A stretch of 64,000 bases of DNA. Source: a bacterium. GTDB lineage: Bacteria; SZUA-79; Acidulodesulfobacterales; Acidulodesulfobacteraceae. The position numbers and the translations under genes were made by a program. The DNA is taken from NCBI GenBank assembly GCA_021831025.1, contig JAKBNN010000080.1, positions 1,941 to 65,940 of the forward strand. Direction: 5' to 3'. Positions 33,095 to 34,021 of this stretch are shown piece by piece; positions within the stretch are counted from its first letter, which is position 1, and every line of letters starts with the position of its first letter. The notes below the pieces were generated by a model. It was given only the letters and a program-made list of their open reading frames with translations. It did not search any database and was not told where the DNA came from.

Positions 33095-34021
33095 ATGGAG
33101 GCGGCGGAGCAATTGATACATGGCGGAACAGGCAATAATAACGGGAAAATAGAACTAATTATGAAAAAGCTTGACGAAATTAAAAACTGCCTTAATTCGC
33201 AGTTTTTAGAAAGGGGAGAGGCTGTGGATATTATCATATCGGCTATCCTGTCAAAAAAACATTCGATATTGATAGGGGAGCCTGGACTTGCCAAAACCGC
33301 GATATTAAAAGCGCTGACAAAACATGTGCGCGGCCTTAAGCTGTTCGATTTTCAAATGACGCCGGCAGCGGATGTAAACGATCTTTTATCTAAAAATACT
33401 AAAAATAAAAGAGGCATCGACAACTGTGATATAGCTTTGATAGATGAGTTTTTTAAGGGACCGCATTCCACGCTAAACTCTCTTCTTGCTATTATGAACG
33501 AAAGAATAATATATGCGCCCGAACCGCGTAAAATTCCTCTAATAAGCCTTTTTGCAACCTCGAACGAAAAGCCCGATAAATCATCAAATTCAAATCTTTT
33601 ACCGCTCTATGACAGGTTTTTATTTCGCAAGGAAATACTGCCGATAAATGAAAAGGGCAATTTTAAGAAATTACTGGAAATACAAAATGATTACAATTTT
33701 AAAAATATGAGATTAAACCTTAACGATATAAATCTTTTAACTCGTGCCTCCGGCAGCGTCTATTTTTCGGATGAAATTTTTAATGTCTTATATGAAATAA
33801 GGGAAGAGCTAAAAAACAAACAGGTTATCGTCTCTGACAGGCGGTGGAAGGAAGTGATTAGAATAATAAAGGTTAACGCCTTTTTAAACGGGAGAGATTT
33901 TGTTAAGACCGAAGACATTAAGATTCTGGAATCTTCTTTATGGACATATTATTCGGATATCAGGGCGGTAAAAAATATTATTAAAAGGGTAACGGCGCAA
34001 AGGCTTGAAGAAAAACAATAA
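33095..34021 (+). CDS. MoxR/RavA-like AAA+ ATPase
   Basis: Walker A is GEPGLAKT, the MoxR-type G-x-P-G-x-A-K-T. Walker B and sensor read ALIDEFFKGPHSTLNSLLAIMNERI, then ISLFATSNEKP and LYDRFLFR. This closely parallels E. coli RavA ([21 protein letters not shown] ... AASNELP ... LYDRMLIR). It starts 3 nt after the B10 stop and overlaps the next gene. Confidence 0.8.
   Translation: MEAAEQLIHGGTGNNNGKIELIMKKLDEIKNCLNSQFLERGEAVDIIISAILSKKHSILIGEPGLAKTAILKALTKHVRGLKLFDFQMTPAADVNDLLSKNTKNKRGIDNCDIALIDEFFKGPHSTLNSLLAIMNERIIYAPEPRKIPLISLFATSNEKPDKSSNSNLLPLYDRFLFRKEILPINEKGNFKKLLEIQNDYNFKNMRLNLNDINLLTRASGSVYFSDEIFNVLYEIREELKNKQVIVSDRRWKEVIRIIKVNAFLNGRDFVKTEDIKILESSLWTYYSDIRAVKNIIKRVTAQRLEEKQ

Follow-up and report, generated by a model that had tools for sequence, protein, structure and literature searches.

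A gene for a MoxR/RavA-type AAA+ ATPase was found embedded in a type IV secretion system (T4SS) operon on a 64-kb stretch of contig JAKBNN010000080.1 (assembly GCA_021831025.1) from Candidatus (Ca.) Acidulodesulfobacteriota / SZUA-79; this whole stretch of 64,000 nt is referred to as the window. The open reading frame (ORF; 33095..34021, plus strand) encodes 308 aa and lies between the genes for VirB10 and for the VirD4-like type IV coupling protein (T4CP). With a probability of roughly one half, its product is a soluble MoxR, predicted to be catalytically competent, which entered the T4SS operons of this phylum by a single recruitment and has been kept there as a dedicated component or assembly factor. 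The novelty is twofold: a T4SS to which an AAA+ component has been added, and a MoxR found in a new context without a VWA protein.

The protein was assigned to the RavA-like branch of the MoxR AAA+ family, which belongs to the helix-2-insert clade; it is neither a RavA orthologue nor a VirB11. Pfam profiles bpMoxR (2.2e-22, 79.6 bits vs. a gathering cut-off of 27), AAA_5 (1.8e-13, 51.1 bits vs. a cut-off of 22) and AAA_lid_8 (8.5e-20, above its gathering cut-off) were matched, AAA_3 stayed under its cut-off (22.3 vs. 27 bits), and T2SSE/VirB11 (PF00437) gave no Pfam match at E ≤ 0.01. The NCBIfam RavA model (NF010054, an equivalog) was matched at 2.8e-34 over RavA residues 5–303 of 498, with 119 bits against a cut-off of 681. 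In a PDB search with a 25-member family profile, RavA ranked first (5.7e-49), followed by Cytophaga MoxR (2r44, 3.5e-18). The AlphaFold2 (AF2) model (pLDDT 87.5, pTM 0.86) was likewise closest to RavA (TM-score 0.80, 27–28% identity), then to CHU_0153/2r44 (TM-score 0.74), and then to MCM subunits and BchI; no VirB11, PilT or GspE chain was among the 50 Foldseek matches listed. The model has the α/β core, pre-sensor-1 β-hairpin and all-helical lid of the MoxR fold, the hairpin showing at approximately residues 137–147 of the DSSP string. The initial annotation had called the protein MoxR-type from its GEPGLAKT P-loop and RavA-like motifs. Pfam, NCBIfam, PDB profile and AF2 fold agree with this call, and the profile search proposed there led to bpMoxR, AAA_5 and AAA_lid_8, all passing their cut-offs, and not to the VirB11/GspE family.

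The catalytic motifs are intact. They comprise Walker A (GEPGLAKT, residues 61–68), Walker B (ALIDEFFK, with ALIDEF at 113–119), sensor 1 (ATSNE), the arginine-finger region (LYDRFLFR) and sensor 2 (VSDRR). Across 25 homologues with 37–88% identity to the window protein, these motifs are invariant or nearly so, and K67 (Walker A), D117/E118 (Walker B), N157, R174 and R249/R250 are invariant; from the alignment with RavA, the last three positions would be sensor 1, arginine finger and sensor 2, respectively. The protein consists of the AAA+ core and the lid only, ending after the lid without the C-terminal domains of RavA. It is soluble and has no transmembrane (TM) segment; VirB4 is the sole other protein of the cluster without a hydrophobic segment. 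PADLOC gave no defence-system match, the neighbours being T4SS genes, and a PHROGs search returned a generic 'ATPase' family only.

The VirB10, MoxR and T4CP genes are tightly packed, whichever starts hold. Two nucleotides separate the stop of the TrbI/VirB10 gene, which ends at 33092, from the MoxR ATG at 33095, and the T4CP ORF, read from TTG 34005, overlaps the MoxR 3′ end by 17 nt. Both junctions had been described initially and were recovered, with some ambiguity in the exact starts. The ATG at 33095 has no Shine–Dalgarno sequence and is replaced by TTG in a 99%-identical relative. An alternative start, TTG 33113 (302 aa), is preceded by GGAGG 11 nt upstream, was chosen by the gene caller in the 99%-identical contig and may be the true one; TTG 34026 could likewise serve as T4CP start instead of 34005. 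A scan for operon promoters and terminators gave counts at chance level, uninformative on the boundaries.

Distribution, gene order and common origin

Approximately 100 clusters of close relatives were found (283–320 aa, 36–99% identity to the window protein), below which matches dropped to generic MoxRs of 372–478 aa with 30–34% identity. Looking up gene contexts and scanning a single genome for each GTDB species yielded 37 loci. They come from approximately 29 species-level metagenome-assembled genomes (MAGs), all of Ca. Acidulodesulfobacteriota / SZUA-79, with acid mine drainage and sulfidic sediments as source habitats. The T4SS proteins of the window were mapped onto these loci by tblastn, by which three architectures were defined, with MoxR identities of 34–99% to the window copy. 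Type A, to which the window belongs (MoxR 49–99%), has the order VirB10–MoxR–T4CP–112-aa protein–VirB9–lipoprotein–lytic transglycosylase (SLT) at its 3′ end. In type B (46–48%), VirB10–MoxR is followed by VirB9 directly, without an adjacent T4CP, with a type IVb pilus cluster further downstream. Type C (34–36%) has the order VirB8–VirB9–VirB10...VirB4...SLT–MoxR; here, the SLT and MoxR genes overlap, and an excisionase-like HTH_17 gene comes next after MoxR. The pilus cluster 3′ of the type B T4SS (L004:13995-20855, L036, L041) is R64-like and encodes a secretin, a GGDEF protein, PAP_PilO, T2SSE, T2SSF and a PilS/bundlin pilin.

An independent, T4SS-centred metagenome scan, in which the protein at the VirB8 position was used as query, recovered MoxR in 6/6 type A/B loci with enough flanking sequence, and the same arrangement was present in independent NCBI, ENA, JGI and Logan assemblies. 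The public-genome search suggested in the initial annotation thus returned the MoxR–T4SS link from some 29 species-level genomes plus metagenome contigs, in three gene orders and dozens of independent assemblies, so that the concern raised there about a single chimeric assembly did not materialise. One locus on a 203-kb contig of MAG TL1-3.bin68 (L029:9900-9999) carries a run of 100 N, which covers the 3′ end of the VirB10 gene as well as the 5′ half of MoxR; the other T4SS proteins of this close relative are 87–98% identical. The apparent 5′ truncation of this MoxR was rejected as a gap or masked stretch and does not represent a deletion.

So far, the association is confined to one uncultured phylum. 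MoxR relatives below approximately 33% identity to the window protein (from Paenibacillus, Brevibacillus, Listeria plasmids and elsewhere) had flanks without similarity to the T4SS proteins of the window. A search of PLSDB for the arrangement gave best MoxR matches of ≤33% identity, which were not embedded in a T4SS; of the two inspected, one has a VWA gene next to it. Outside the phylum, the most closely related T4SSs are those of elements in Omnitrophota and related MAGs (type D), with 27% identity in VirB4 and 33–34% in the VirB8-like protein and VirB10. Their order is TrbC–B3–VirB4–x–VirB6–VirB8–CagX/VirB9–TrbI, with neither VirB11 nor a RavA-like MoxR, and both are also missing from a further relative (28% identity to the type D VirB4).

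Two features of the type D elements were recorded separately. One Omnitrophota-type element without an in-operon MoxR (L106:3381-5981) carries, approximately 5 kb upstream of VirB4, genes for an AAA_5 ATPase (348 aa), a 127-aa protein and a DUF2201 VWA-like metallopeptidase; the AAA_5 protein was rejected as ancestor of the T4SS-linked MoxR, since the two lack significant pairwise similarity. Downstream of TrbI, type D clusters (L106-L108) consistently contain genes for OEP (TolC-like), a GT2 glycosyltransferase, a HlyD/BSH-like protein and an NTP-transferase, an unusual conserved appendix to this T4SS.

The T4SS-linked MoxRs have a single origin. In a neighbour-joining (NJ) tree of 44 sequences (295 columns, 100 bootstraps), they form one clade, nested against the generic family of ~380 aa, with support of 93/100 for types A, B and C together and 100/100 for types A and B. 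All of them lack the C-terminal coiled coil of approximately 85 aa. Type C MoxRs are nearer to the generic family (40–45% identity) and, like the general family, keep the longer helix-2-insert region; in types A and B this region is shorter. Across loci, the identity of MoxR to its window copy correlates with the corresponding values for VirB4, the VirB8-like protein, the VirB9-like protein, VirB10 and T4CP (r = 0.73–0.91). Within type A, MoxR has a mean divergence of 64%, compared with 54–78% for the core subunits, and is thus no outlier among them. Clade structure and co-divergence are consistent with one recruitment, after which MoxR was inherited together with the T4SS under purifying selection.

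Type A loci lie among housekeeping genes with partly conserved flanks: a DUF4852 gene follows most loci, ThiH-like/ThiS/ThiG genes are present in several, and a pyruvate kinase gene is located upstream in the closest relatives. This chromosomal setting argues for vertical inheritance and host-level selection and against a recently acquired element. Strong counter-selection against insertions in virB loci has been described by Guglielmini et al. (PMC3548315), and an insertion that has been retained in such a locus is for this reason more likely to be functional.

Possible roles of the T4SS-linked MoxR

As a dedicated component, MoxR would be co-translated with VirB10 and the coupling protein, would assemble into a hexameric ring on the cytoplasmic side of the inner membrane and would use ATP to remodel parts of the cytoplasmic platform, leading to assembly or activation of the channel. 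We infer this oligomeric state, as well as the partners and the step acted on. Candidate clients are the VirB10 N-tail of ~45 residues, VirB4, T4CP and the short tails of VirB6, VirB8 and VirB3; when VirB10 N-tails from loci with MoxR (types A–C) and without it (type D) were compared, no common motif was evident. In a T4SS class without VirB11, MoxR would then join VirB4 and T4CP as the third ATPase, and would act without a VWA adaptor.

Several points weigh against such a role. MoxR ATPases are chaperone-like remodelers, which normally act through a VWA/MIDAS partner, and this partner is absent from the cluster. No VWA or DUF2201 domain was found in any ORF ≥100 aa of the window, which bears out the earlier remark that no VWA gene is nearby, nor in the type A, B and C loci inspected. 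Two neighbours were considered as cryptic VWA partners and rejected, the 329-aa protein being VirB9-like (TrwF match, E 0.004) and the 131/231-aa protein a lipoprotein. Moreover, MoxR is not tied to one neighbour, because its gene follows VirB10 in types A and B but SLT in type C, and the T4SS class is not generally MoxR-dependent, because relatives in Omnitrophota and other MAGs have neither MoxR nor VirB11. The shortened helix-2 insert of types A and B might reflect a reduced or altered remodelling activity.

The position of the gene had initially been described as the one where VirB11 would be expected, and it invites the reading that a MoxR hexamer displaced VirB11 in situ as a non-orthologous substitute, docks under VirB4 and switches between pilus biogenesis and substrate transfer. 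The type A MoxR sits exactly in the middle of the order B10–X–D4, both families are hexameric ATPases, and neither type A nor type C loci were found to have a T2SSE/VirB11 gene within ~10 kb, the only T2SSE gene of type B being the ATPase of the neighbouring type IVb pilus cluster. The positional part of the earlier statement thus holds for type A. It does not extend to type B, in which no T4CP follows MoxR, or to type C, in which MoxR comes last, after SLT, so that the slot argument is limited to one architecture. As to replacement, type D elements and the relatives beyond them have neither VirB11 nor MoxR, from which it follows that this T4SS class probably lacked VirB11 before MoxR arrived; several known mating-pair formation classes also do without VirB11. 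The evidence favours MoxR as an addition to the T4SS over a one-for-one replacement, and we regard displacement of VirB11 as unlikely. MoxR may or may not supply a VirB11-analogous function.

A MoxR gene could also have been left over from MoxR–VWA cargo of a mobile element. Its role would then concern the biology of the element, such as establishment, anti-defence or stress, and not secretion, and the T4SS operon would be no more than its carrier. RavA-like MoxRs occur on 101 PLSDB plasmids, with an adjacent VWA gene in one checked case; the Omnitrophota type D element has its AAA_5 and DUF2201 VWA-like genes some 5 kb upstream of VirB4; and type C loci are probably mobile because of the excisionase-like HTH_17 gene at their end. 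However, the VWA partner is absent from all three architectures, and the gene is translationally coupled inside the core operon instead of lying in a cargo region. MoxR has moreover been kept in the chromosomal, apparently vertical type A under purifying selection comparable to that of the core subunits, the window MoxR and the AAA_5 protein of type D are not closely related, and PADLOC gave no match, all of which makes a cargo remnant quite improbable. Still less probable is a chaperone on the substrate side, by which effectors or nucleoprotein would be unfolded or handed to the coupling protein and the machine itself would be untouched. The chaperone-like nature of MoxR proteins and the overlap of the type A gene with the T4CP gene suit this idea. 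Non-canonical substrates are also hinted at, since no relaxase was found in the 64-kb window and a second T4CP stands alone at 55066-56898. The type B MoxR, however, has no adjacent T4CP, no conserved candidate effector was found beside MoxR, and we know of no MoxR-family ATPase that acts as a threading unfoldase. An artefact, be it a chimeric contig or a mis-called ORF, has a negligible probability, given the same arrangement in independent NCBI, ENA, JGI and Logan assemblies and an ORF with significant family matches and a confident fold.

T4SSs are thought to use up to three ATPases, namely VirB4, VirD4 and VirB11, which to our knowledge all belong to RecA/FtsK-HerA/PilT-type lineages. If MoxR is indeed a dedicated component or assembly factor, the T4SS would have acquired, with an AAA+ protein, an engine or assembly chaperone that differs in mechanism from these. 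For MoxR proteins, whose substrates are, as far as we know, mostly unknown, the T4SS would in turn be a defined macromolecular client served without a VWA adaptor. The host system is itself unusual, with a divergent VirB4 (≤23% identity to any PLSDB plasmid T4SS), a chromosomal location, apparently vertical transmission across a phylum of acid mine drainage and no relaxase found nearby; effector delivery, DNA exchange or adhesion are candidate roles.

The T4SS cluster and the remaining window

The cluster is compact and encoded on one strand, with all gaps ≤66 nt except one of 266 nt (Table 1). Of the components of a T4SS, the locus has VirB4, VirB6 and VirB10 as well as a coupling protein and a VirB1-like transglycosylase. 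VirB4 is very divergent; its best match among 72,556 PLSDB plasmids had 23% identity (Myxococcus stipitatus pYRE, a T4SS plasmid that carries no MoxR).

Table 1 Genes of the T4SS cluster in the window, in order of position
Feature	Coordinates	Strand	Evidence and remarks
175-aa protein, first cluster gene, VirB2/TrbC-pilin position (putative)	25061..25588	+	two hydrophobic TM-like segments; kept in types A and B
110-aa protein, VirB3 position (putative)	25629..25961	+	two TM segments; 1-nt overlap with VirB4 start
VirB4/TraC-family ATPase, 872 aa	25961..28579	+	P-loop_TraG 6.5e-30; TraC-F-type 2.5e-60; VirB4_CagE 2.4e-33
371-aa secreted/membrane-anchored protein, VirB5 position	28619..29734	+	N-terminal hydrophobic segment; kept in type A
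VirB6/TrbL-like polytopic protein, 382 aa	30001..31149	+	Pfam TrbL 3.4e-07, above cut-off; seven TM-like segments
220-aa bitopic protein, VirB8 position (putative)	31200..31862	+	one N-terminal TM segment; kept in types A–D
VirB10/TrbI-like protein, 407 aa	31869..33092	+	Pfam TrbI 3e-13; NCBIfam T4SS_VirB10 2.4e-09
MoxR/RavA-type AAA+ ATPase, 308 aa (302 if TTG 33113)	33095..34021	+	Pfam, NCBIfam, PDB profile, AF2
VirD4-like T4CP, 614 aa	34005..35849	+	T4SS-DNA_transf 2e-06; NCBIfam conju_CD1115 3.1e-17
112-aa small membrane protein	35901..36239	+	kept in type A
VirB9-like protein, 329 aa	36306..37295	+	signal-peptide-like N-terminus; family profile matches TrwF (R388 VirB9), E 0.004
Lipoprotein, 131 aa	37335..37730	+	lipobox LLSGC; C-terminally shortened
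VirB1-like lytic transglycosylase (SLT), 186 aa	37717..38277	+	Pfam SLT 7.1e-26; present in types A, B and C
DUF4852 protein, 252 aa	40321..41079	+	follows cluster in most type A loci; membership in system uncertain

Some of the labels are putative. The 175-aa protein is by position a putative VirB2/TrbC pilin, its counterpart at the same position in type D relatives matching Pfam TrbC. The putative VirB3 label of the 110-aa protein is based on position and topology, and the putative VirB8 label of the 220-aa protein on position and bitopic topology; the latter gave no significant Pfam or PDB profile match, and its single-sequence AF2 model was unusable (pLDDT 40). For the 371-aa protein, no Pfam match and nothing significant in the PDB profile search was obtained. 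VirB10 has a cytoplasmic N-tail of approximately 45–50 aa, one TM segment and a C-terminal TrbI domain, and the in-operon T4CP has an N-terminal TM segment, Walker A GATGTGKT and Walker B VFICDE. Type D counterparts of the 329-aa VirB9-like protein match Pfam CagX, and its gene lies directly 3′ of MoxR in type B. In a 92%-identical relative (L007:14136-14846) the lipoprotein has 236 aa, of which the C-terminal ~105 aa are missing from the window copy.

Between the SLT and DUF4852 genes (38345-40125, plus strand), a 292-aa protein without assigned function and a type II N6/N4 DNA methyltransferase (PADLOC MTase_II 4.6e-126) are encoded. This insert resembles a restriction–modification module and is variable, with both genes in L012 and L026 and the methyltransferase alone in L007 and L008. 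Directly upstream of the T4SS, two small divergent ORFs of 126 and 83 aa (24080-24680, minus strand) without Pfam match are candidate regulators; several type A loci have them conserved together with the T4SS. The stand-alone T4CP (610 aa, plus strand) lies ~19 kb downstream of the T4SS among housekeeping genes and matches T4SS-DNA_transf (5.8e-20), TraG-D_C and TrwB_AAD_bind, being more canonical than the in-operon T4CP. Relaxase and integrase families were absent among ORFs ≥100 aa in the window and from the L001 and L007 flanks. The remaining window encodes housekeeping proteins (TilS, FtsH, FolP, CdaA, GlmM, PdxJ, aspartokinase, FBP aldolase, pyruvate kinase, CysRS and glycogen synthase).

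Comparison with known systems

Full-text literature searches returned no paper describing a link between MoxR and type IV secretion, in agreement with the earlier remark that MoxR is not a described T4SS component, and genomic papers on Ca. Acidulodesulfobacteriota make no mention of secretion or conjugation systems. The closest relative of known structure is E. coli RavA (PDB 3nbx, 6q7l), the AAA+ core and AAA_lid_8 lid of which match the window MoxR over RavA residues 9–290 (5.7e-49). Both proteins have a P-loop of the GxPGxAK[ST] type, and they also agree in the Walker B, sensor and arginine motifs. RavA, however, has 498 aa and carries C-terminal triple-helical and LARA domains, both of which are missing from the 308-aa window protein; and whereas RavA has a ViaA/VWA partner and an LdcI context, the window MoxR has neither and sits in a T4SS operon.

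Generic RavA-like MoxRs (~376–383 aa; bpMoxR/AAA_5/AAA_lid_8) are the closest outgroup in sequence and share the Pfam architecture, with 30–34% identity to the window protein and 40–45% to the type C proteins. They differ in carrying a C-terminal coiled coil of ~85 aa and a longer helix-2 insert, and are not located near T4SS genes. Their genes often have a VWA neighbour; that of Brevibacillus laterosporus plasmid p1821L01 has a canonical adjacent VWA gene. Like VirB11/TrbB/DotB, the window MoxR is a soluble and presumably hexameric ATPase with its gene in a T4SS operon, and in type A it takes the same slot between VirB10 and VirD4. There is no relationship in sequence or fold, as judged by Pfam and the structural matches listed; AAA+ proteins and the PilT/VirB11 class are different ATPase lineages.

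The nearest precedent for the MoxR–T4SS link is found in Thaumarchaeota, in which pairs of MoxR/GvpN and vWA genes are linked to type IV pilus loci and were predicted to modulate them (Makarova, Koonin & Albers 2016; PMC4858521). There, too, a MoxR-family ATPase is linked to a membrane-spanning filament or secretion machine; the differences are that an archaeal type IV pilus is not a T4SS, that the vWA partner is present and that the ATPase belongs to a GvpN-like subfamily.

A second, independent linkage of MoxR with a secretion machine is provided by Dadabacteria-like MAGs (L094:6001-7152, L096:6001-7152, L110:8001-9152), for which no description was found in the literature searched. In these, a 383-aa RavA-like MoxR ends a type II secretion system (T2SS) operon of the order GspD-E-F-G-H-I-J-K, overlapping GspK by 16 nt, without a VWA neighbour and without GspL/M genes called. 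Like the window MoxR, this protein is VWA-less, RavA-like and translationally coupled in the operon of an envelope-spanning secretion machine; it differs in the machine (T2SS) and the lineage, in the C-terminal coiled coil, which is kept, and in its place outside the T4SS-linked clade. The parallel may point to a broader theme of MoxR in secretion. Tentatively, and with considerable doubt, VWA-less RavA-like MoxR hexamers could be a hitherto unrecognised class of stoichiometric motor or assembly ATPases of envelope-spanning secretion machines, recruited independently at least twice: by the T4SS of Acidulodesulfobacteriota, as a third ATPase in place of the VirB11 function, and by the GspL/M-less T2SS of Dadabacteria-like bacteria.

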